DNA of 64,000 nucleotides from Leptospiraceae bacterium (GCA_024233875.1 JACKPB010000009.1:85191-149190); one strand, 5' to 3'; positions 140 through 56,197 are shown, numbered from the stretch's first letter. Notes: generated by a model from the letters alone, not told the origin. Translations and numbers: made by a program.

Positions 140-783
140 TGATCAATCCATTTAAAATTATATTCTTTCTTTTCAGTATTACATTACTGTCTAATTGTTC
201 TAGCTTTTTAAAAAAAGACTATCCCGAAAAAAAGTACTATCTTCTGGATACAGATCGCTCTAACCTTAAAAAAGGGAAATTGAAGTTCCCGCTATTAAAA
301 ATCACCAAGATACGGATTTCTCCATATTTTGAAGGGAAGAACTTTGTCTACAAACAGGGTAATCTAAACTATGAAACTGATTTTTACAATGAATTCCTCG
401 TCTACCCCTCTAATAACATAAATGAAGTTGTGAACAAATGGATCATTGAGTCCGGATTGTCAGTTCCCTGGTCTGTCTATGATGAAGATGTTTACCAATT
501 GCAAATCAATGTAGAATCACTTCATGGAGATTTTTCTGATGGCTCTAAGCCCAGGGCTATTCTGGAACTAAACTTTTTACTTCAAAAAGCAGGGAGTAAA
601 AAAATCCTATATACAAAAAAATTCCATAAAGATGAGCCAATTACAGAAATCAATGCCGATAACCTCGTTACAGCCTGGAACAAAGGTTTGACTGAGATCA
701 TGATCGAAATGGAATCCGATCTAAGAAAAATCCAACTACCCAAGAAAGATGATCCGGAAGAAGAGAAAGAAACTGAAAAATAA
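139..783 (+). CDS. Lipoprotein, likely an ABC-type transport auxiliary lipoprotein (PF03886-like) of the kind that follows mce operons
   Basis: N-terminal signal peptide with lipobox LLSNC. About 210 aa. Its start is coupled to the upstream stop by a TAATG overlap. Acidic Glu-rich C-terminus. Confidence 0.5.
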   Translation: MINPFKIIFFLFSITLLSNCSSFLKKDYPEKKYYLLDTDRSNLKKGKLKFPLLKITKIRISPYFEGKNFVYKQGNLNYETDFYNEFLVYPSNNINEVVNKWIIESGLSVPWSVYDEDVYQLQINVESLHGDFSDGSKPRAILELNFLLQKAGSKKILYTKKFHKDEPITEINADNLVTAWNKGLTEIMIEMESDLRKIQLPKKDDPEEEKETEK

Positions 784-787
784 TTAG

Positions 788-950
788 TAACTCACATTAC
801 GCAAAGAAGCGAAATGTGAGGTTGCAGGGAGCCTGCCGGCAGCTTGGGCTATCGCCCAAACCCATATTTTTATTGATCTATTAGCAAAAAATGATTTTGA
901 TTTTAAACTAAAAAAAATTAGAAAAATAAAATACTGCGTAAGATGAGTTA
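788..950. repeat. Family A MITE-like repeat, copy A1 (diverged)
   Basis: Begins taactcacattacgca and ends tgcgtaagatgagtta, which are inverted ends. The interior, cagggagcctgccggcagcttgggctatcgcccaaaccc, is homologous to copies at 2457 and 27108. Confidence 0.7.
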
Positions 951-1019
951 GTAAGAAATAAAATAACTACTCTCCTGATCAGATTTATTACTTTCTGAAA
1001 AAAATAGATAGGTTATTGT

Positions 1020-2450
1020 ATGGCGTATTTATTCTATTTTTTACTTATTTTCGTTTCAAACTATTTCTTATACGGAGATGAGTATCATAGCATTCAAGGC
1101 TTGTATGGCAACAAAGCATTAGGAATGGGTGGAGCCTATACAGCCATTTCGGATGAACCTTCCGGTATGTATTACAATCCTGCGGGTATGTCTTTTTCTC
1201 AAAGCAGTAACATCACAGTAAATGCAACAACTTACCAATATGATAGAAAAACTTATCATAATGTATTTGGACCTGCTCAAAATTATACTAGAGAATCAAA
1301 AAATTTAGGTCCTAATTTCGTAGGAATTTTGCAGAAACTAAACAATTTGACTGTTGGTTTTTCATTAATCAATATTCAATCCAAAAAATACTCTCTATCC
1401 GGAGAGATCAACTTACCCTACTTTTCTCCCGAAGTTGATCGTTACAAGGCAGATTCTCTCGAAAATACAATGAATTTTCTGGCCGGTCCGGGTATCTCAT
1501 ATCTTTTAGGATCAAAAATCTCCGTAGGGATGAGTTTATTTTACTCTTATGACAATGAAGACAATATTTTCACAGGAAGTATTGAGAAAAAAGATGGCAC
1601 TATTTCCGCTCATACAATGAAAGTTAAGCGACTGACAAAAGGAGTTCTTCCTGTTTTGGGGATTCAGTATCTCGTTACAGAAAAACTATCTCTGGGTGTA
1701 TCACTTAAAAAAATGTTTACCGTGATACATAACAAAAGATATTCTAGCAATACTCTTAATGCGATTGCATCAGGCAATAGTTTTATCAGAAATAAAGAGT
1801 TCATAGAATCTTCCGATAGTTTTTTTGTAGCTTATGATGAACCAATGATCATCGCGGTGAAATCCCCCAATCTGGGAACAATCGCAGAACCTACTGAGGT
1901 TAGGTTGGGACTGGCTTATTTCGCCTCCCATCGATTTTTGGTTTCAGGGGACGTCATTTATACCGGGAGCTATCACTATTCAAAAAGAAATTATGGTGTC
2001 ATCTTTCCCGAAAAAGCAGTGATTTCTGCTGACAATACTATTCTGAACAATATAAATAGAAAAGAGACATATAATTTTGCTTTAGGAGCAGAATACTTTT
2101 TAACAGAATCAATTGCTCTCCGATTAGGAGTTTTTAGCAATTATTCAAATACTAAATACTTATCGAAGCAAAAACTTTATGTAGAAAGGTTTTTTTCAAA
2201 TCCTTTTTCACCTCTACCCATCCCTATCACACCTAACTACTATCATATATTTCCATCCAAGAGACTGGAGCATGTGACTCAATTTGGATACACTCTCGGA
2301 TTGAGTTATGAAACATCAAAAGCATTTTATAGTTTTACAATCCTGGCAGAAGATGGAAGAGGTTTGGGGTTTGCCTTCAATAGTTCTGTTCCTCAAAAGA
2401 TATCCTATTTAAATTTTAATTTTTATCTCTCAGCCGGAACTAATTATTAG
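1020..2450 (+). CDS. FadL/OmpP1/TodX-like outer-membrane beta-barrel protein
   Basis: Hydrophobic N-terminus. Motif GNKALGMGGAYTAISDEPSGMYYNPAGM near the N-terminus. 476 aa with amphipathic beta-strand pattern. A paralog lies at 39746..41221. Confidence 0.55.
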   Translation: MAYLFYFLLIFVSNYFLYGDEYHSIQGLYGNKALGMGGAYTAISDEPSGMYYNPAGMSFSQSSNITVNATTYQYDRKTYHNVFGPAQNYTRESKNLGPNFVGILQKLNNLTVGFSLINIQSKKYSLSGEINLPYFSPEVDRYKADSLENTMNFLAGPGISYLLGSKISVGMSLFYSYDNEDNIFTGSIEKKDGTISAHTMKVKRLTKGVLPVLGIQYLVTEKLSLGVSLKKMFTVIHNKRYSSNTLNAIASGNSFIRNKEFIESSDSFFVAYDEPMIIAVKSPNLGTIAEPTEVRLGLAYFASHRFLVSGDVIYTGSYHYSKRNYGVIFPEKAVISADNTILNNINRKETYNFALGAEYFLTESIALRLGVFSNYSNTKYLSKQKLYVERFFSNPFSPLPIPITPNYYHIFPSKRLEHVTQFGYTLGLSYETSKAFYSFTILAEDGRGLGFAFNSSVPQKISYLNFNFYLSAGTNY

Positions 2451-2456
2451 TTTTAC

Positions 2457-2640
2457 TGACTCACCTTACGCACGCACTTCACTTATGCGAAGGTGAATGA
2501 CAGGGAAGCCTGTCGGCGCTTGGGGACTTCATCCCCAAACCCCTTTAAATATTGAATTATTAGAAATATCTAATGATTCACAATCTTTATTTAATTCCAT
2601 AGTATCCCTTTAAAAAATTCATGTTGCGTAAGGTGAGTTA
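2457..2640. repeat. Family A MITE-like repeat, copy A2
   Basis: Perfect 16-bp terminal inverted repeats: tgactcaccttacgca at the left and tgcgtaaggtgagtta at the right. Internal hairpins include cttcac..gtgaag, gacagg..cctgtc and gggga..tcccc. About 90% identical to the copy at 27108..27292. Confidence 0.8.
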
Positions 2641-3068
2641 TTGAATTAAATATCTCTAATTGAAATCGTTCTCAATGCCATATTTGTAAATTGTAACCTA
2701 TTTAGAAAGAACAGTTAGAAAATATGAAATCTGATTAAAACTCACCTAACACATTCTTTTCTTATTTCTGAACATGATATACCAGTTCTCATAAATAATT
2801 GCGTTTTTCTTAGTAAGGTATGTAGCGATTTTATAGCTTATTTCTTTATGAATGAGCTAACCTTTTGAAGATGACTATAATCTTTTTATAAAAAATCATT
2901 TTTCCACAATAAATCAATAAAAATAGAGCTTTGGTGACGATGAGTTTTCGATTTGCTGAATAACTTTTTTCATTTTTTTCACCTATCACCCGAAGAGTGT
3001 AATGTGAATTAGAAAAGTAAATTTTATTATTCTTGCACAAAATACATATTAGTTTATCATAATGAATT

Positions 3069-4082
3069 ATGAGTTCTCTGAACAATGAAAATCCGGAAAA
3101 ACCGGTTCTGGTAGCCATAGTTGCTAATACAATCATCGCCATATCCAAAGGAATCGGGTATCTGTTTAGCGGATCTTCGGCACTTCTTTCCGAAACGATC
3201 CATTCTATTGCTGATGTCATGAATCAAGCCTTACTTCTCATCGGAATACGAAGAGGAGCCCGCCCGGAGAATGAGATTTACAATTATGGATACTCTCAGG
3301 AAAGATTCTTTTGGAATCTTTTATCCGCAGTAGGAATATTTGTTCTCGGCTGTGGGGTCACACTCTATCACGGTGTTCATGAACTTTTAGAGCATAGTGA
3401 CGTCAAACCCGCCGGAGTGGAACAATACGTCATAGAAGCAATTTTGTTGATCTCTCTATTAGCCGAAGGATATTCTTTTTCTGTAGCTGTCAAAGAAATC
3501 AAAAAATCTGCTGATGAGAGGAAAAAGAAATTTTTTACATATCTCAATGAGTCTACAGATCCTTCAATTAGTGCCATTTTTTGGGAAGATCTGGCTGCGA
3601 TTCTGGGGATTTTACTGGCCTTCACCGGTATCGTGATGACCAACCTCACTATGAATAAAACTTTTGATTCCATTGCCAGTATCTTGATAGCCTTATTGAT
3701 GGGTTGGATAGCATATCACCTGGCTATCGAAAACAAGAAATTTCTGGTAGATAGATCGATTCCTGATTTTGAAATGAATCTTATAAAAGAAATTTTGAAT
3801 ACTAATCCATATTTAAAAGGATATTCTGAAATCAAATCAATTGTTCTCGGTCCAACAAGATTGAAGTTTACAGCTAAATTGGATTTTCAAACCGAGAAAC
3901 TCTTCAAAACAACATCCTTCTCCAAAAAATTTGAAGAGAATCCTCAACTAACTTTGAATTTGAACGATGCCAAAATTTTGAATGATGAATTGTTTGAAGT
4001 TCAAAAAAGAATAATAAATGAAATCAAATCAGAAATGATGAATAAAATTCCTAATTTAATGCATATCGAATTAACTATCTAA
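3069..4082 (+). CDS. Cation diffusion facilitator (CDF) family metal efflux transporter
   Basis: Six predicted transmembrane segments. Motifs HSIADVMNQALLLIG and ARPENEIYNYGYSQ are typical of CzcD/FieF-type CDF proteins. A C-terminal cytoplasmic domain is present. Confidence 0.8.
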   Translation: MSSLNNENPEKPVLVAIVANTIIAISKGIGYLFSGSSALLSETIHSIADVMNQALLLIGIRRGARPENEIYNYGYSQERFFWNLLSAVGIFVLGCGVTLYHGVHELLEHSDVKPAGVEQYVIEAILLISLLAEGYSFSVAVKEIKKSADERKKKFFTYLNESTDPSISAIFWEDLAAILGILLAFTGIVMTNLTMNKTFDSIASILIALLMGWIAYHLAIENKKFLVDRSIPDFEMNLIKEILNTNPYLKGYSEIKSIVLGPTRLKFTAKLDFQTEKLFKTTSFSKKFEENPQLTLNLNDAKILNDELFEVQKRIINEIKSEMMNKIPNLMHIELTI

Positions 4083-8627: not shown

Positions 8628-8847
8628 AAAATTACATTTCCTTATAACAGACTGAATTCCAGTATTTGGACAGTTGGGATTGTTGAAAAGTTAAAAAGAA
8701 TGGAAAATTTAACGAGAAAACTTCAGCCTTATGGATAGGAAAATTTTTTTTCTATTAAAAGGATCAACTCATAAATTCATTTTCAAAAGTTAGTGGAGAC
8801 CCGCAGCGGATCATTCTATGTTAGATACCGTTTGCTATCTAGGGAAA

Positions 8848-8915
8848 TAGTCTCAATTAAAGTTAATGTCTATTCAAAAATCCTTATGACTAGTAAATAA
8901 GTTATTTACTAAAGA
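8848..8915. repeat. Family C short repeat, copy C1
   Basis: tagtctcaattaaagttaatgtctattcaaaaatccttatgactagtaaataagtta is about 88% identical to 15385..15450. Confidence 0.6.
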
Positions 8916-12679: not shown

Positions 12680-13429
12680 TTAGATTCTTCCCAGTGTATC
12701 TATCACGAGTTTGGCGGCAGATGCACCAGAAAACTGTTGTTGTCCAGTGATCAGATTTCCATCCCGAATCGCAAAAGGTTTGAACATACCTGCATTGATG
12801 TAGTTCGTGTTGGGAATTTTCTTTGCTTCGGTCTCAATCCAGAAGGGTTGAATTCTTTGTCCGACAAACCCATCCGCATAGGCTTCCTCGGCATCAGTAA
12901 AGCCAGTCCAAGTTTTACCTTCGACCAAAAGCTTGCCATCCGATGTCTTTGCTTTGAGAAGGATGCAAGTGGCATGACAAATTGCTGATGCTACTTTTCC
13001 TTTTTCATAGAATTTCACAAAGAGATCGTGCAACTTTTTGTTCTCAATAAAAGTATACATCGGGCTTTGTCCACCAGTGAGAAAGATCGCATCGAAATCA
13101 TCGACTTGGATCTTGTCGATGGATTTTGTATTTTTGATCAGTTCACTGTGTTTTGGTGATTTTTTAAATCCCAAGGAAACATAGTCAGCCGCTGAATACC
13201 CAGAAGGATCTTCGGGATCACTGTAACCATCGGGAATCAAATCTCCACCATCGGGCGAAAAGATTTCCACCCCATATCCTGCCTCGGTAAATTCCCAATA
13301 AGGATGGGTTAGTTCAGACCACCAAAAACCAATCGACCAACCTGTTTGTTTAGAAGTGGATGCATTCGCTACCACCATTGCGATTTTTTTCTTGGGAGAA
13401 GAATTATCGTGACTCATATTTTTATCCAT
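12680..13429 (-). CDS. DJ-1/PfpI family protein (class I glutamine amidotransferase-like; Hsp31/amidase-like)
   Basis: Conserved nucleophile-elbow Cys in AICHATCILL. About 249 aa. Divergent from the HxlR regulator, a classic pairing. Confidence 0.75.
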   Translation of the reverse strand: MDKNMSHDNSSPKKKIAMVVANASTSKQTGWSIGFWWSELTHPYWEFTEAGYGVEIFSPDGGDLIPDGYSDPEDPSGYSAADYVSLGFKKSPKHSELIKNTKSIDKIQVDDFDAIFLTGGQSPMYTFIENKKLHDLFVKFYEKGKVASAICHATCILLKAKTSDGKLLVEGKTWTGFTDAEEAYADGFVGQRIQPFWIETEAKKIPNTNYINAGMFKPFAIRDGNLITGQQQFSGASAAKLVIDTLGRI

Positions 13430-14148: not shown

Positions 14149-14709
14149 TCAAGTTTTTTCGTATACTTCTTCTAATTTGAGAACGCAGGAGATGGAGGAG
14201 AGTTCTATTTCTTGTTTTTCATCAGTGGTCTCTTCAAGTTCCCACTTGGATGAAGAGTTCAGATGGTATTTTTCAATTTTTTGCGAATTTTGACTTATGA
14301 GAACATACTCTTGAAGGGATGGAATCTGTCTATAATGGGCAAATTTGGCACCGCGGTCTATGCTTTCTGTCGAATCTGATAGAATTTCAATGATGACTAT
14401 TGGATTCAATAGAGTGTCTGGAGAGTCTCCTGAAAATACCTTTTCAGGACAGGCAACTAACAGGTCAGGATAAGCAAACAAACCTGTGCTTTTCACCTTG
14501 ATTCGCATATCACCTGCATACACTTTGCAGGGTTTATTTCGAAGTTGGAGACCGATAGAAATAGAAAGATTCATTGAAATCGTATTGTGTTTCTCTGAAG
14601 CACCGGCCATGGCATAGATTTGTCCATTAAAAAACTCATTTTTGTCCTGAGACGCTAGGTCGTATTCTAAGTATTCTTGTTCTGTAAAAATCTTAATTGG
14701 CTCTTCCAT
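14149..14709 (-). CDS. Uma2 family endonuclease (DUF820, restriction-endonuclease-like fold)
   Basis: N-terminus ...FTEQEYLEYDLASQDKNEFFNGQIYAMAGASEKHNTISMNL... together with AYPDLLV and the catalytic D/E-K region, as in PF05685. Confidence 0.75.
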   Translation of the reverse strand: MEEPIKIFTEQEYLEYDLASQDKNEFFNGQIYAMAGASEKHNTISMNLSISIGLQLRNKPCKVYAGDMRIKVKSTGLFAYPDLLVACPEKVFSGDSPDTLLNPIVIIEILSDSTESIDRGAKFAHYRQIPSLQEYVLISQNSQKIEKYHLNSSSKWELEETTDEKQEIELSSISCVLKLEEVYEKT

Positions 14710-14869
14710 ATGAGAAGAATTGAATTTCTATTGAAAAAAGACAAGTAGTTTCTATCGTTCTTTGGATAGAAGTCAAATTGAAAATTTCTTATCCTCTGTT
14801 TGGGTGATATCTTTATGAAAGAAATATAGATTGGAGAAATTTTTAATCGATCACTAACTTTTCCGATCA

Positions 14870-15165
14870 AATGTTGCTGTCCTGTGATCAGATTTCCATC
14901 TTGAATGACAAAAGGTTTGAACATTCCTGCATTGATGTAATTAGTGTTGGGAATTTTCTTAGCTTCTGTCTCAATCCCAAAAGGTTGAATTCTTTGTCCA
15001 ACAAACCCATCAGTATAAGCTTCTTCGGCATCAGCAAAACCAGTCAAGGTTTTACCTTCGACCAAAAGTTTGCCATCCGAAGTCTTTGCGTTGAGAAGGA
15101 TGCATGTCGCATGGCTGATGCTACTTTTCCTTTTTTATAGAATTTCACAAAGAGATATGTTCCTA
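14870..15165 (-). pseudogene. Truncated duplicate of the C-terminal ~40% of the DJ-1/PfpI gene at 12680..13429
   Basis: DNA is about 85-90% identical to 12700..13010. Translation VEGKTLTGFADAEEAYTDGFVGQRIQPFGIETEAKKIPNTNYINAGMFKPFVIQDGNLITGQQ matches the parent. The frame is broken upstream and no N-terminal half is present. Confidence 0.7.
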
Positions 15166-15384
15166 GTCCATTATTTACCACTTCTGTTGCACAAAGTGTA
15201 GCAGCCATACTTTTTGTATTACTTCCTATATGCCTTCCTTCATTAATGGAATCAACATTAAACTCCGCCATATCGATTCTTCGAGAGCCGGAAAACCCAA
15301 TATAGATAAATCCATTTACAGATACAACTACTATGACAACTCCTGGAATTACATTTTTAGTTGTTTGATTATGCAATCTAAGTA

Positions 15385-15450
15385 AATTAGTCTCACTTAA
15401 AGTTACTGTCTATTCAAAAATCCTTATTGCTTGTAAATAAGTCACTTCCT
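15385..15450. repeat. Family C short repeat, copy C2
   Basis: tagtctcacttaaagttactgtctattcaaaaatccttattgcttgtaaataagtca matches 8848..8915. Confidence 0.6.
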
Positions 15451-15594
15451 ATTAGGTGATAAATGTCCTATTGTTCCATGGGCAACAAATTGTTATGACT
15501 AAAAAAATATTTATATTATTATTTCTAATTATTAGAGGTTGCTATATTTAACTTAAAATATGTTTAGTTATATCTTGATTTATGAGTTTGAGAA

Positions 15595-26868: not shown

Positions 26869-27107
26869 GTATAGTCTTATCTGATGGATGGGTTGAAATC
26901 TCCAAACTTTGAAAAATAACAGAACAGTTTCGATTCAAAAGTTCAAAAAAATGGACATATTTTTCCCTGGCAGTGGTTCAACCGGGCACACAAACCAGGG
27001 ACTCATCGTCTCCAAACACTTATTTTTCTTGATCTCTAAGTAAAATATGATTTTCCATAAAAAAATTAAATGTTCAGAAAATTAAAAAAATTGCGTAAAG
27101 TGATTTA

Positions 27108-27292
27108 ATAACTCACCTTACGCACGCACTTCACTTGTGCGAAGGTGAATGACAGGGAAGCCTGTCAGCGACTTGGGGACTTCGTCCCCAAATCCCTTTA
27201 AATATTGAATCATTAGAAAAATCTAATGATTCAATATTTATTTAGTTCCATAGTATCCCTTTAAAAAATTCATGTTGCGTATGGTGAGTTAA
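27108..27292. repeat. Family A MITE-like repeat, copy A3
   Basis: taactcaccttacgcacgcacttcacttgtgcgaaggtgaatgacagggaagcctgtcagcgacttggggacttcgtcccc...tgcgtatggtgagtta is about 90% identical to 2457..2640. An extra partial inverted end, tgcgtaaagtga, abuts the left terminus at 27091. Confidence 0.8.
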
Positions 27293-27326
27293 TAAATTTC
27301 TAAACAAAAGTTTTTAAGTAATTTGG

Positions 27327-28520: not shown

Positions 28521-28871
28521 TCAAAATAGAGGGATGGGCCAGTCTATAAATGTTTCTCGTTTCCTAAGATTGCAGTTGAAGCCTCCAATATCAGCTGTTG
28601 CAAAATTGATGATCATAGCTGAATTGGCACAATTGTCTACATCCTCTTTTTCATAATACGCAGATTCGTCTATATTCGCAAGTGTAGGAGCAAGAATAGC
28701 TGTAATAGAAACGGATCCGCCTCCTGCCGCTCCAATGATTGCAGCTGTTAAGATTTGATCTTTAGCTTCTGTTCCTTTTACAGTACTGGGATACGTGAGA
28801 CCAACCATATTCATTACCTGACAGTTAGAGATCAAAAAGAGAAACATGGAGAGAGTAATAATTTTTTTCAT
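28521..28871 (-). CDS. Small secreted lipoprotein, paralog 1 of a tandem triplet
   Basis: Signal peptide plus lipobox LISNC. Conserved VGLTYPS.V.G.EAKD...ADIGGF.C.L...I.WPIPLF. A Shine-Dalgarno sequence AAGGAA lies upstream. Confidence 0.7.
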   Translation of the reverse strand: MKKIITLSMFLFLISNCQVMNMVGLTYPSTVKGTEAKDQILTAAIIGAAGGGSVSITAILAPTLANIDESAYYEKEDVDNCANSAMIINFATADIGGFNCNLRKRETFIDWPIPLF

Positions 28872-28887
28872 ATTTTTTCCTTATAAA

Positions 28888-29241
28888 TTAAAATAATTGA
28901 ATCGGCCAATTCACAAATTTTTTGTGTTTTGTCAAATGGCACTGAAACCCACCGATATCCGCACTTAAAGAATTAATGAGCATGGCATCCTGAGCACAGG
29001 TTTCTACATCTGATTTATCATAAAACGCATCTTCTTCTATAAATGCCAACCGATCAGCAAAAAAACCTAATAGACCACCACTCGAACATTCCACGCAAGC
29101 AACTGCACCTATAAGTGCCTTAGTGATGATCATATCTTTAGCTTCTTTTCCGCTAACAGATTCGGGGTAAGTCAATCCAACAGAATCAAAGACAACACAA
29201 TGATTGAAAACAAACAATAGGACTAAGATAAATTTTTTCAT
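28888..29241 (-). CDS. Small secreted lipoprotein, paralog 2 of a tandem triplet
   Basis: Signal peptide with Cys (FNHC). Same conserved blocks and Cys pair as paralog 1. Shine-Dalgarno AGGAG is 6 nt upstream. Confidence 0.7.
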   Translation of the reverse strand: MKKFILVLLFVFNHCVVFDSVGLTYPESVSGKEAKDMIITKALIGAVACVECSSGGLLGFFADRLAFIEEDAFYDKSDVETCAQDAMLINSLSADIGGFQCHLTKHKKFVNWPIQLF

Positions 29242-29251
29242 AATATTCTCC

Positions 29252-29617
29252 TCAGATGATGGGAATCGGCCAGTTAATCAACTTCTTATGTTCTTTGAGG
29301 TTGCATGTATAGCCCCCAATATCTGCTCCGGTGAGATTGATCACGAGAGCTTCCTGAGCACATTTTTCAACTTCGCTTCGATCATAATAACTCTCAGGAT
29401 TGATTCCTGCCAATTTATCAGCGATCAATGAGAATGCGGGAGTGTTATTGCCTGAATACCCACCTTCAGTCGCCCCCACTACTGCATTGGATATAATCAT
29501 CATCTTTGCTTCATCCCCTTTAATCGATTCCGGACTTGAAAATCCTATTGTATCCATCACAATACAATTCGATAAAAGCATTACTATCAATATTGAATAA
29601 ACCAACCTTATCAACAT
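29252..29617 (-). CDS. Small secreted lipoprotein, paralog 3 of a tandem triplet
   Basis: Signal peptide LLSNC. The conserved blocks end NWPIPII. Shine-Dalgarno GGGAGAG is 7 nt upstream. Confidence 0.7.
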   Translation of the reverse strand: MLIRLVYSILIVMLLSNCIVMDTIGFSSPESIKGDEAKMMIISNAVVGATEGGYSGNNTPAFSLIADKLAGINPESYYDRSEVEKCAQEALVINLTGADIGGYTCNLKEHKKLINWPIPII

Positions 29618-30238: not shown

Positions 30239-30272
30239 GAGAAATCATTTCTAATTGTTTCTATTCTGTTGA

Positions 30273-30404
30273 TCAGCTTTTTTTCTTTGCAGCAGTTTTT
30301 TTCTTAGCAGCAGTTTTCTTTTTTGCAACTGTCTTTTTCTTAGTTACAGCTTTTTTCTTTGCAACAGTTTTCTTTTTTGCAGCAGCTTTCTTTTTAGCAA
30401 CCAT
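30273..30404 (-). CDS. 43-aa lysine-rich repeat microprotein (histone-H1-tail-like), not in the ORF track
   Basis: Manual translation of the minus strand gives MVAKKKAAAKKKTVAKKKAVTKKKTVAKKKTAAKKKTAAKKKS*. A Shine-Dalgarno GGAGGAGG sits 8 nt before the ATG. A rho-independent terminator lies just downstream. The plus-strand ORF 30193..30459 (FFAAVFF...) is its low-complexity shadow. Confidence 0.55.
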   Translation of the reverse strand: MVAKKKAAAKKKTVAKKKAVTKKKTVAKKKTAAKKKTAAKKKS

Positions 30405-31092
30405 CGAACTTGCCTCCTCCTTAGAATTTCAATCGCTCTTTTATAATATCAACGCTTGATTACTTTGTGACATAATTTATTATCAGTTCTTATCCTGTAA
30501 AGTCTTTTGTGATTTTTTATTGAAATATTTTTTTCTTTATTAATAAAATTTGCAAAGCACCTTTATTGAATATAATGAATCATGAATGTATTAAATTTTG
30601 TAACATAGAACATTAATAACTATCGAACAAAAAACTTTTCTCTTTAATAAAAGATCAAAATTCTAATCGATCGGTTAACTTTTTTATGAACATAGGATCG
30701 TTTAAGCACTTTGGCTATAAAAATTAAGTATAGAATCATCTCCTTTTATCATCTCTATACATCCCAGGTTCACTTCTTTAATGCAAATTAATCATCAATC
30801 TATGCTAAACTATCTTTCTTGCTATGATCCAAACGCATCAATTGATAGAGTTTCCACCTTCAAAGGTTCTTAATTCAAAGAACACTCTATCACTTATGCA
30901 TAAATTTCTTAATACAAAACACTTTTCATGATAACTAGAAAAGAATTTTGCTTTGATTCCATGTTTACAAATGAAATTTCATTTCTATAACTTTGCAAGA
31001 CTCTACCGGAATCATTGATCAGGGTAATTTTAAAGCAGGGTAGAATGAAAAAATCGTTGATCACTTATAAATGAGTCTTACTTATATCAAAA

Positions 31093-50348: not shown

Positions 50349-50372
50349 GAGGGAACATCCCGGAAACTATAG

Positions 50373-50450
50373 TCATTTTCAAAAGGTTTGCGAATTCATG
50401 AAAGAATTTGCTTTAAAATATCTACATACCATAAGAATCTATACTCAAGC
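50373..50450 (+). repeat. Family B repeat, copy B1
   Basis: tcattttcaaaaggtttgcgaattcatgaaagaatttgctttaaaatatctacataccataagaa. Confidence 0.7.
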
Positions 50451-50499
50451 ATTTTAAGAAAATGATAAATACTAAACGAAATAGAGAAACTAAAGAAAA

Positions 50500-50600
50500 C
50501 TATACTCATTTTCAAAAGGTTTGCGCATTCATGAAAGAATTTGCTTTAAAATGGCTGCATATCTTAAGAAAAAATACGTAAGTATTTATGAAAACCGATA
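50500..50600 (+). repeat. Family B repeat, copy B2
   Basis: tcattttcaaaaggtttgcgcattcatgaaagaatttgctttaaaatggctgcatatcttaagaaaaaatacgtaagtatttatgaaaaccga. Confidence 0.7.
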
Positions 50601-50681
50601 TATAGATCTATTAGTAAAATATGATTTTGTGTAAGAAAATTAAAATCTTCTGAAGAATAAAAAAATGCGTAAAGTGAGTTA
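50594..50681. repeat. Family A partial copy (right half plus right terminal repeat only)
   Basis: gatctattagtaaaatatgattttg...aaaaaatgcgtaaagtgagtta is homologous to the right half of A1 (about 876..950). No left terminus is present. Confidence 0.55.
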
Positions 50682-50694
50682 ATAATTTACAATA

Positions 50695-51483
50695 ATGTAT
50701 GAACTTCTTCATAGTATCACTGCGGTCTTCTTTTCAATTGTCTTTGTAATGATCTTTATTCTGATCTGGACTACAGACATAAGCATACAATTCTCATCAA
50801 AAAAATGGAAGATTGCCGGATCCATCTTACTGTCCCTATTTTTTATCATTTTTTTTACTGTTTTGTATCCACATTTTGTAATCAATTTTTATTATTCTAT
50901 CTTGTATCACAATCAATTGCTAATTTTTAAATCGGACACAATTCCATTATTACTTTTTGGGTTTTTTGCGGGTATTTTTTCTCTAATACCCATATCTGCC
51001 TGGTTTGGATTGTCCGAAAAAAAATATTTATCCTATCGATTCAATAAGCTCTATACTTTTCTAATCTTATTTTTATTCTTTTTTCTCCCTTATTACCTAA
51101 CTCTGAATGGCTATACACTTTTTAACAAAGATCATTTTTTGAAAAGGAATCATTTAGATCTTTTTCCAAGAACTTATGAGTACACCCAAAATCTTAAATT
51201 CCAGTTTTCATCAGAATCCAGAACCTCTTCTTCCAAAGGTTCGACGACTACCTACAGGGTTCTTCTATTTAAAATGGAAGTGGATGGAGTAGAGGAGTTG
51301 ATTTTTGAAAGAAGTCAACTGGAAAAAAAATTGTTGAGCAATACCATTCAAATAGTCCAATTATTGAAAGAAAAAAATCTATCAGTGGAGATACCTTTCG
51401 TACTTATAGGTTTCAGTAAAATACGTAGCCAATTAGAACCTTATCAATTTAAACTGGATTTAAATGAAATATTTAAAAAATAA
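50695..51483 (+). CDS. Hypothetical integral membrane protein
   Basis: About 5 hydrophobic helices in the N-terminal 150 aa, then a soluble tail. Overlaps the next gene by 20 nt, so they are co-transcribed. Confidence 0.45.
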   Translation: MYELLHSITAVFFSIVFVMIFILIWTTDISIQFSSKKWKIAGSILLSLFFIIFFTVLYPHFVINFYYSILYHNQLLIFKSDTIPLLLFGFFAGIFSLIPISAWFGLSEKKYLSYRFNKLYTFLILFLFFFLPYYLTLNGYTLFNKDHFLKRNHLDLFPRTYEYTQNLKFQFSSESRTSSSKGSTTTYRVLLFKMEVDGVEELIFERSQLEKKLLSNTIQIVQLLKEKNLSVEIPFVLIGFSKIRSQLEPYQFKLDLNEIFKK

Positions 51484-54637: not shown

Positions 54638-54734
54638 ATAAGTAGAAATTCTGTTATCTTAGAATATGTCAATCCTTTCCATATTCACTCTTTATTTATT
54701 TTTCTATAGATGTTTCATTCTACTTATTCTAATT

Positions 54735-54830
54735 TTTAGAAGGATTATGCATTCATAGAAGAATCAGCCATAAAATGACTACATACCTTAAGAAGAATTA
54801 CGCAAGTATTTATGAAAACCGAAACATCTC
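54735..54830 (+). repeat. Family B repeat, copy B3
   Basis: attatgcattcatagaagaatcagccataaaatgactacataccttaagaagaattacgcaagtatttatgaaaaccga. Confidence 0.65.
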
Positions 54831-54961: not shown

Positions 54962-55060
54962 TGTCTTTCCAATTTAAAGTCATTTTCAAAAGTATTTACG
55001 CATTCACAGAAGAATATGCTATAAAATGGCTAGATACCTTAGAAAGAAATACGTTAGTAT
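54962..55060 (+). repeat. Family B repeat, copy B4
   Basis: gtcattttcaaaagtatttacgcattcacagaagaatatgctataaaatggctagataccttagaaagaaatacgttagtatttctgaaaatt. Confidence 0.65.
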
Positions 55061-55099
55061 TTCTGAAAATTGAGCTCTAATCCAAACCAGGGGAATATT

Positions 55100-56197
55100 T
55101 TGTACAAAATCTTAGTAGTAGAAGATGATTCCAATATTCGAAATGGAATTGCTAATTTTTTAAAATTTGAAAATTACTCAGTTCAAACTGCAGAAAATGG
55201 GAAGATAGGTTTTGAAATAGCTAAAGATATAGTACCTGATCTGATCATTTCTGACATTATGATGCCGGTCATGGACGGATATGATTTTCTTACATCCATC
55301 CGGAATCATTCAGCCTTGAGCCATTTGCCCGTTCTTTTTTTGTCCGCTAAATCAGAGAGTTCCATGATTCGATCCGGAATGAATCTAGGAGCCGACGACT
55401 ACATAACCAAACCTTTTTCCTTTGATGAGTTACTTTCTGCAATAAAAACTAGATTGAGCCGAAAAGAAACTATTCAGGACAAATCACAGGCTAAATTAAA
55501 ATCCATCCGATCCAATCTCATTTCATTGATGCCTCATGAATACTACACACCATTGAATTCTATACTCGGATTCAGCGAAGTCTTAAGAGAAGAATACGAT
55601 ACTCTGGAGAAATCGGAAGCTTTAGAAATGATATCGAGTATATTTTCTTCCGGTAAGCGATTGCAAAATCTAATTGAAAATACTCTCCTCTATTTCTGGT
55701 TTACCTCCGCTACAAAATCAGAACTGGATTATGATATCGAGGGAGAGATAACTTCTAACTGTTCTGAAATCATTCAGGACATTCTTCACGAAGAATCTTT
55801 GATCTACGAGAGAAATTCTGATCTGGAGATAAACGAACTCATAGATTGCGAACTTTCTATTCGAGAAGATCATTTTGCAAAAATTCATAAAGAATTGATA
55901 ATCAACGCTATTAAATTTTCAAATCCAGGAACACCAATCACAATTTCTTCAAAAAGAAAAGATTCAAATTATCTATTCACGGTAGAAGATAGGGGTAGGG
56001 GCTTTTCAGATGAGCAAATCAAACATATAGATGAATTTACACAATTCAACCGAAAAATGTATGAACAGCAGGGCCAGGGTCTCGGATTGTTTCTTACTAA
56101 GAAACTAGTAGAAATCTATAAGGGCAATTTTCATATCAGCAGTCTCTTAGGTATGGGAACCACCGTTAAAATCACACTACCTATTTCAAAAGAGTAA
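55100..56197 (+). CDS. Hybrid response-regulator/histidine kinase (REC - HisKA - HATPase)
   Basis: Probable TTG start preceded by Shine-Dalgarno AGGGGA; the ORF could extend to 55070. REC domain (KILVVEDD...DLIISDIMMPVMDGY...K). H-box PHEYYTPLNSILG. G-box RGRGF...GQGLGL. Confidence 0.75.
   Translation: MYKILVVEDDSNIRNGIANFLKFENYSVQTAENGKIGFEIAKDIVPDLIISDIMMPVMDGYDFLTSIRNHSALSHLPVLFLSAKSESSMIRSGMNLGADDYITKPFSFDELLSAIKTRLSRKETIQDKSQAKLKSIRSNLISLMPHEYYTPLNSILGFSEVLREEYDTLEKSEALEMISSIFSSGKRLQNLIENTLLYFWFTSATKSELDYDIEGEITSNCSEIIQDILHEESLIYERNSDLEINELIDCELSIREDHFAKIHKELIINAIKFSNPGTPITISSKRKDSNYLFTVEDRGRGFSDEQIKHIDEFTQFNRKMYEQQGQGLGLFLTKKLVEIYKGNFHISSLLGMGTTVKITLPISKE

Follow-up and report, generated by a model that had tools for sequence, protein, structure and literature searches.

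MITEs that share their ends with an insertion sequence form a well-known class, to which the Correia elements of Neisseria belong. MITEAba12 of Acinetobacter is a bacterial MITE of this kind that is mobilised in trans by an insertion sequence (PMC6382973), and the order Leptospirales has been reported to be among those richest in MITEs (PMC11602168). Among insertion sequences, canonical members of the IS701 family are 1400-1550 bp in length and generate duplications of exactly 4 bp (PMC2266710), and the duplications made by ISAba11 are 5 bp (PMC7885321). The repeats described here lie in a 64,000-nucleotide stretch of a Leptospiraceae genome (the window, meaning the whole of the DNA that was analysed; G+C content, 36.5%), and they constitute a real MITE family. 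The copies are best explained as MITEs that have 13-bp ends and a 7-bp footprint in common with an IS701-family insertion sequence and that were moved in trans, a reading to which we assign a probability of roughly 0.9.

Three full copies are present on the plus strand of the window. A1 (791-947; 157 bp) was recognised from the sequence, by a 16-mer search and with an nhmmer family profile (E = 6.3e-31), and the same profile detects A2 (2460-2637; 178 bp; E = 9e-36) and A3 (27112-27288; 177 bp; E = 6.4e-36). A2 and A3 are 93.4% identical over 183 nt, whereas A1 and A2 are 67% identical over 143 nt and represent different subtypes, in line with the identity of about 90% for A2 and A3 and the greater divergence of A1 that had been estimated previously. 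An earlier note on this DNA had located the three full copies and a partial copy (50592-50678), all of which are present, and had counted 3.5 copies; this count omitted a second partial copy (27006-27104) and a degenerate one that runs in the opposite direction (2741-3008). With three or fewer mismatches, the 16-mer TAACTCACCTTACGCA occurs nine times in the window against an expectation of 0.29, and none of 100 shuffles reaches nine.

The same note had described the ends as a perfect 16-bp terminal inverted repeat. No single copy has such a repeat (15/16 in A2, 15/16 in A3, 14/16 in A1). As read from the flanks, a 7-bp direct repeat stands immediately outside CTCAC...GTGAG at each full copy, and therefore the element ends at the inner 13 bp (CTCACCTTACGCA) and the TAA/TTA of the 16-mer is target DNA, its three outer bases being part of the 7-bp duplication. 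The terminal inverted repeat of A1, A2, and A3 is accordingly 13 bp (CTCAYNTTACGCA / TGCGTAANRTGAG). In A1, the left end occupies 791-803 (CTCACATTACGCA) and the right end 935-947 (TGCGTAAGATGAG), and identical copies of TTAGTAA are read at 784-790 and 948-954 (7/7). A2 has its ends at 2460-2472 and 2625-2637 and is flanked by TTACTGA (2453-2459) and TTATTGA (2638-2644), which match at six of seven positions and both have an unusual TGA where the other copies have TAA. A3 lies between perfect copies of TTAATAA (27105-27111 and 27289-27295; 7/7). The target-site duplications that had been proposed as a check are thus found at each full copy.

Sensitive blastn, alignment, and the family profile together bring out three further pieces, all incomplete or decayed. 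The right half of an older copy of the A1 subtype (27006-27104, plus strand) abuts A3 and has its right end at 27092-27104 (TGCGTAAAGTGAT); it is 72% identical to A1 over 96 nt (blastn, E = 9e-12) and is also recovered by alignment and by nhmmer (E = 0.029). Another right half of the A1 subtype (50592-50678, plus strand), 73% identical to A1 over 94 nt (blastn, E = 9e-12), has its right end at 50666-50678 (TGCGTAAAGTGAG) followed by TTAATAA (50679-50685), and its left side has been replaced by repeats of a second family, family B. The degenerate copy (2741-3008, minus strand), whose limits are less certain than those of A1-A3, has a left end at 3008-2996 (TTCACATTACACT) and a right end at 2753-2741 (TGTGTTAGGTGAG) and is split by a family-B repeat of about 110 nt at 2777-2887.

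Family B is a repeat of about 100 nt (consensus ...TCAAAAGGTTTGCGCATTCATGAAAGAATTTGCTTTAAAATGGCTACATACCTTAAGAAGAAATACGCAAGTATTTATGAAAAC) with at least five copies, about 70% column identity, and no Rfam match. Four copies (50364-50471, 50497-50604, 54721-54828, and about 54975-55070) lie upstream of the genes at 50695-51483 and 55070-56197; one of the family abuts the partial MITE at 50592, and the reverse copy at 2777-2887 is that inside the degenerate MITE. The window also contains seven 18-nt units repeated in tandem (TTTTTTCTTTGCAGCAGT-like) at 30261-30419; a pair of duplicated segments (12732-13026 and 14869-15156; 245 and 55 nt, 88-91% identical, 2.1 kb apart), the second of which overlaps a series of short, mutually overlapping ORFs (14149-15376, minus strand) that may be a decayed paralogue; and a 67-nt direct repeat (87% identical) at 8845-8911 and 15385-15451, which may be another small repeat family.

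All MITE copies are intergenic, as had been noted. A1 lies after an ABC_trans_aux gene and upstream of a FadL-like gene (1020-2450), and its left duplication starts directly after the ABC_trans_aux stop codon (TAA, 781-783). The FadL-like protein itself is identical to one from the MAG of an uncultured 'Leptospiraceae bacterium' (locus tags H7A24_; 236-kb contig). At the other end of the FadL-like gene, 2 nt separate the stop codon from the A2 duplication, and A2 itself starts 9 nt after that stop; the placement of A1 and A2 on either side of this gene in the earlier note is therefore right, and its gap of 7 bp is not. A3 is located between convergent genes, and 16 nt lie between the partial copy at 50592-50678 and the start of the downstream gene (50695-51483). 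These positions next to gene ends fit a TTANTAA-like target. A3 is inserted in the TTAATAA that flanks the older partial copy at 27006-27104, which indicates that the duplication regenerates a target. As a separate observation, three tandem paralogous genes for small lipoproteins (Pfam Lepto_Lipo_YY_C; 28521-29617, minus strand) lie on the far side of the DUF1574 gene next to A3, at a distance of about 1.2 kb from that copy.

Each copy consists of 157-178 bp of non-coding DNA between 13-bp inverted ends (CTCACCTTACGCA ... TGCGTAAGGTGAG). Under the proposed mechanism, these ends would serve as recognition sites for an IS701-family DDE transposase of the clade matched by NF049921, encoded by a full-length insertion sequence of about 1.15 kb that resides at some other place in the genome or in the population and acts in trans. 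After excision or copying, the element would be inserted at a 7-bp staggered break, with TTANTAA as the preferred target, and the 7-bp target would then be duplicated on both sides of the element. Cut-and-paste chemistry is assumed here by analogy with other DDE transposases. Copies would tend to land beside gene ends and beside each other, since TAA stop codons and AT-rich spacers look like the target and each duplication creates it anew. We infer that a transposase of the IS701 clade moves these copies and that this genome has, or once had, its partner element.

Full-length elements with the same ends, all in other organisms, carry an IS701-family transposase: a 1148-bp element in Legionella (L009, 372-1519; duplication GTAGTAA), a 1169-bp element in Tenacibaculum (L075, 5219-6387; duplication TTATTTA), and a 1148-bp element on a Piscirickettsia plasmid (L126, 323-1470; duplication TTCATAA). 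The transposase with matching ends that the earlier note had suggested seeking is thus found in IS701-family elements of other organisms, and the 64-kb window contains none when searched by tblastn with the IS701-family transposase. The single ORF of the Tenacibaculum element (361 aa) matches NCBIfam NF049921 with 323.5 bits against a cut-off of 250 (E = 1.6e-96), as well as Pfam DDE_5 (52 bits against 27) and DDE_Tnp_1. Relatives of this transposase number in the thousands and typically sit on contigs about 1.15-1.2 kb long, as happens when the copies of a repeated element collapse in assembly, and ORFs related to it follow the same ends in several other loci. The best 120 homologues of the Tenacibaculum transposase are close flavobacterial relatives only and so say nothing about a partner in the Leptospiraceae. 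The 13-bp ends of the full-length elements are almost invariant across many phyla. The interior of the MITEs is not derived from the known full-length elements, in which the non-coding ends measure only about 35-50 bp; this weighs against the proposed partnership.

In duplication length and element length, these partner elements (7 bp; 1148-1169 bp) lie outside the 4 bp and 1400-1550 bp of canonical IS701 members. With duplications of 4 bp in canonical IS701, 5 bp in ISAba11, and 7 bp here, the partner clade departs from the family norm, a further point against the proposed partnership, and by both lengths it is a divergent IS701 subgroup. Its transposase is about 24% identical to that of ISAba11.

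The same ends recur in many other genomes. A search for TAACTCAYNTTACGCA, with one genome taken per species, returned at least 120 stretches. By our own estimate, random matches to a pattern with 14 fixed bases would number about 2000 in a genome collection of 596 Gb, and hence the content of the matches, and not their number, is evidence. Among the matches listed, a second, inverted end lies 25-2200 bp away in 74 cases, and a perfect 7-bp duplication flanks 34 of these 74 end pairs as against none of 220 offset controls, in which the flanks were shifted by 7-21 bp. The preferred target is T-T-A-N-T-A-A, a preference that is partly inflated, since the search pattern fixed three bases at one end. 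Many perfect duplications depart from TTANTAA (TTAGTCA, CTCTTAA, TTAACAT, TAAGGAA, and TTAAGTG are examples), which indicates that all 7 bp are copied from the target. Among the matches listed, 31 of the 34 perfectly duplicated pairs are 95-354 bp apart and have unrelated interiors; the other three are the full-length elements of Legionella, Tenacibaculum, and the Piscirickettsia plasmid.

Such MITE-like pairs were found in Chloroflexota, Ignavibacteria, Planctomycetota, Nitrospirota, cyanobacteria, Thiomargarita, Treponema, and others, and the ends with the 7-bp footprint are also tied to MITEs in Chlamydiota, Legionella, and spirochaetes. In MAGs of Chlamydiota, mini-elements of 33-40 bp consist only of two 13-bp ends and a short loop (L007, 5435-5467; L084, 7173-7212; L089, 1476-1510). 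In IMG/VR, a scan of predicted viral contigs gave 70 pattern matches, a number that by our own rough estimate does not exceed the chance expectation; only two of them are clear MITEs with the same ends: a 143-bp element with a perfect TGAGTAA duplication (L153, 9808-9950) and a 133-bp element with a perfect TTATTAA duplication (L198, 2078-2210). A full-text search of one paper library found neither of the 16-mer end sequences nor the 14-base core.

ORFs within the copies are only 20-38 aa in length, none being shared between A2 and A3 and none conserved between copies. With this transposase missing from the window and no ORF conserved among them, the copies are non-autonomous; the duplications, the IS701-type ends, and the absence of coding capacity bear out the non-autonomous transposable element that had been suggested for this family. 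In the same strain, about 10 kb upstream and about 9 kb downstream of the window contain no transposase and no further copy; that neither this DNA nor the window yields a full-length partner weighs against the reading. A2 and A3 are 93% identical over the whole interior and have identical limits, which indicates that these two were multiplied in their short form, not generated by independent deletions of a long element. Empty sites were sought and none was found, which likewise weighs against the reading: all assemblies with identical flanking proteins keep the same spacing at the A1/A2, A3, and A4 loci; the nearest FadL-like homologue (53% identity, in a sister MAG) stands in another gene context and is not syntenic. 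Contigs assembled from short reads of this strain break off within A1, A2, and A3 where the copies start to diverge, which fits a repeat that tangles the assembly graph.

The interior of the window copies has a layout in common with three elements from elsewhere: one of 158 bp in a Leptospiraceae MAG (L098; duplication TTACTTA), one of 177 bp in a Spirochaetota MAG (L060; duplication TTATTAA), and one of 218 bp from a metagenome (L125), which is the single extra copy from a metagenome scan with an end-plus-interior pattern. L098 and L060 come from other spirochaete assemblies, where they occupy different sites, and each is flanked by a duplication of its own. L098 has on its left TTACTTA, which does not end in TAA, and on its right an identical 7 bp, so that this copy is informative for the limits of the element. 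In the common layout, after the left end comes part of it in inverted form (GGTGAG, AAGGTGA, or AATGTGAG), which matches that copy's own end variant; next come a block GCAGGGAAGCCTGCCGGCGGCTTG and a G+C-rich hairpin, and then a central palindrome (ATTAG-N7-CTAATG) and an A+T-rich right part. The partial inverted end beside the left end resembles the Chlamydiota mini-elements, which suggests an origin from such an element, and the family may have arisen from a mini-element of 33-40 bp that recruited a more distant right end.

The stems of the interior differ in sequence between copies. The first hairpin pairs via GACAGG/CCTGTC, GCAGG/CCTGC, or GGCAGG/CCTGCC and is broken in L098 and L060, and the second pairs via TTGGGGA/TCCCCAA, TTGGGC/GCCCAA, or TTAAGGGC/GCCCTTAA. 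The copies are too few for compensatory changes in the hairpins to show function, and we read the interior as palindromic MITE cargo, possibly with no function at all. A further proposal combines two ideas, namely that the interior is cargo under selection and that the partner elements represent an undescribed IS701 subgroup. Such cargo could act as structured RNA or as DNA that binds a protein, and the MITE would spread it to sites beside gene ends; it would consist of the hairpins after the left end and the ATTAG-N7-CTAAT palindrome, an interior kept in the window, L098, L060, and L125. The subgroup could be marked by its near-invariant 13-bp ends (in at least ten phyla), its 7-bp TTANTAA duplication, and its many independent MITE offshoots, mini-elements of 33-40 bp included. 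Taken jointly, the two ideas are unlikely to hold.

The hairpins also raise the question of whether the copies are genes for a structured small RNA, or a cis-regulatory RNA, present several times, with the ends as the closing helix and the interior hairpins as the functional core. The nested interior hairpins described in the earlier note are real: single copies fold far better than shuffles (A2, -67.3 kcal/mol, z = -9.1; A1, z = -3.8), and the two interior hairpins stay paired through different sequences in different copies. However, folding is just as good on the reverse strand (z = -7.8), which is what palindromic DNA would give, and in an RNAalifold analysis of six family members the covariation term is about zero, only the closing helix of the ends and the central palindrome being supported. 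Rfam gives no match at the gathering threshold in the whole window and none on the elements (700-3100) at E <= 10. The copies occur in both orientations and at varied positions relative to genes, and an RNA gene would leave the 7-bp duplications, and the ends common to transposase-bearing elements, unexplained. We regard an RNA gene as very improbable.

Still less probable is that the elements are non-mobile REP/BIME palindromes or intrinsic terminators with a role in mRNA stability or in ending transcripts. In favour are the G+C-rich hairpins and the intergenic position of all copies, the start of A1 and A2 (with their duplications) within 0-2 nt of stop codons, and the place of A3 between convergent genes; the TTANTAA target explains the proximity to stop codons, although the copies may have a secondary effect as terminators. 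A consensus scan of 600-3200 detects no terminator in any copy, the hairpins having no following T runs, and the only promoter-like site is a weak one (9/12) inside A2. REP/BIME sequences are linked to RAYT (tyrosine) transposases and resemble the present family in being intergenic, repeated, and hairpin-forming, but they are 20-40 bp in length and have neither long (here 13-bp) terminal inverted repeats nor target-site duplications. The fallback of a small RNA, REP, or terminator in the earlier note is thus not supported, in view of the Rfam and terminator scans, the presence of both orientations, and the terminal repeats and duplications. The notion that A1 and A2 form a composite transposon that brought the FadL-like gene to this locus, to which the bracketing of the gene by two copies in the same orientation might point, can be set aside, because A1 and A2 are of different subtypes at only 67% identity and each has its own matching duplication on both sides, where a composite would have a single one at the outer ends only, and because an MlaE/ABC-ATPase/MlaD/ABC_trans_aux cluster precedes the gene on its own strand; the special tie to this gene that had been implied dissolves into two independent insertions.

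On the reading of the copies as MITEs moved in trans, a family with IS701-type ends is an ordinary find for a Leptospiraceae genome, and the residual new angle is the combination of a conserved interior, an unusual 7-bp footprint, and the constancy of the ends across phyla. For annotation, six intergenic stretches of this genome can be marked as transposon-derived, the limits of the repeats are corrected, and the notion of the FadL-like gene as mobile cargo is removed. The MITE copies explain breaks in short-read assemblies of this organism, and the 13-bp end together with the 7-bp TTANTAA footprint is a handy signature for annotating MITEs in metagenome-assembled genomes.

Compared with known insertion sequences, the partner elements have in common with the IS701 family a DDE transposase (NF049921, DDE_5, DDE_Tnp_1); ISAba11, at about 1.1 kb, is near their length of about 1.15 kb, and differs in its 5-bp duplication and its transposase. 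Compared with MITEs mobilised in trans, such as MITEAba12 and the Correia elements, the family is alike in its size range (about 100-400 bp), its non-coding and intergenic nature, its ends identical to those of an insertion sequence, its several copies and subfamilies, its duplication of fixed length, and its hairpin-rich interior, whereas it is set apart by its 13-bp CTCACCTTACGCA ends, a 7-bp duplication that prefers TTANTAA, and a partner in the IS701 clade.
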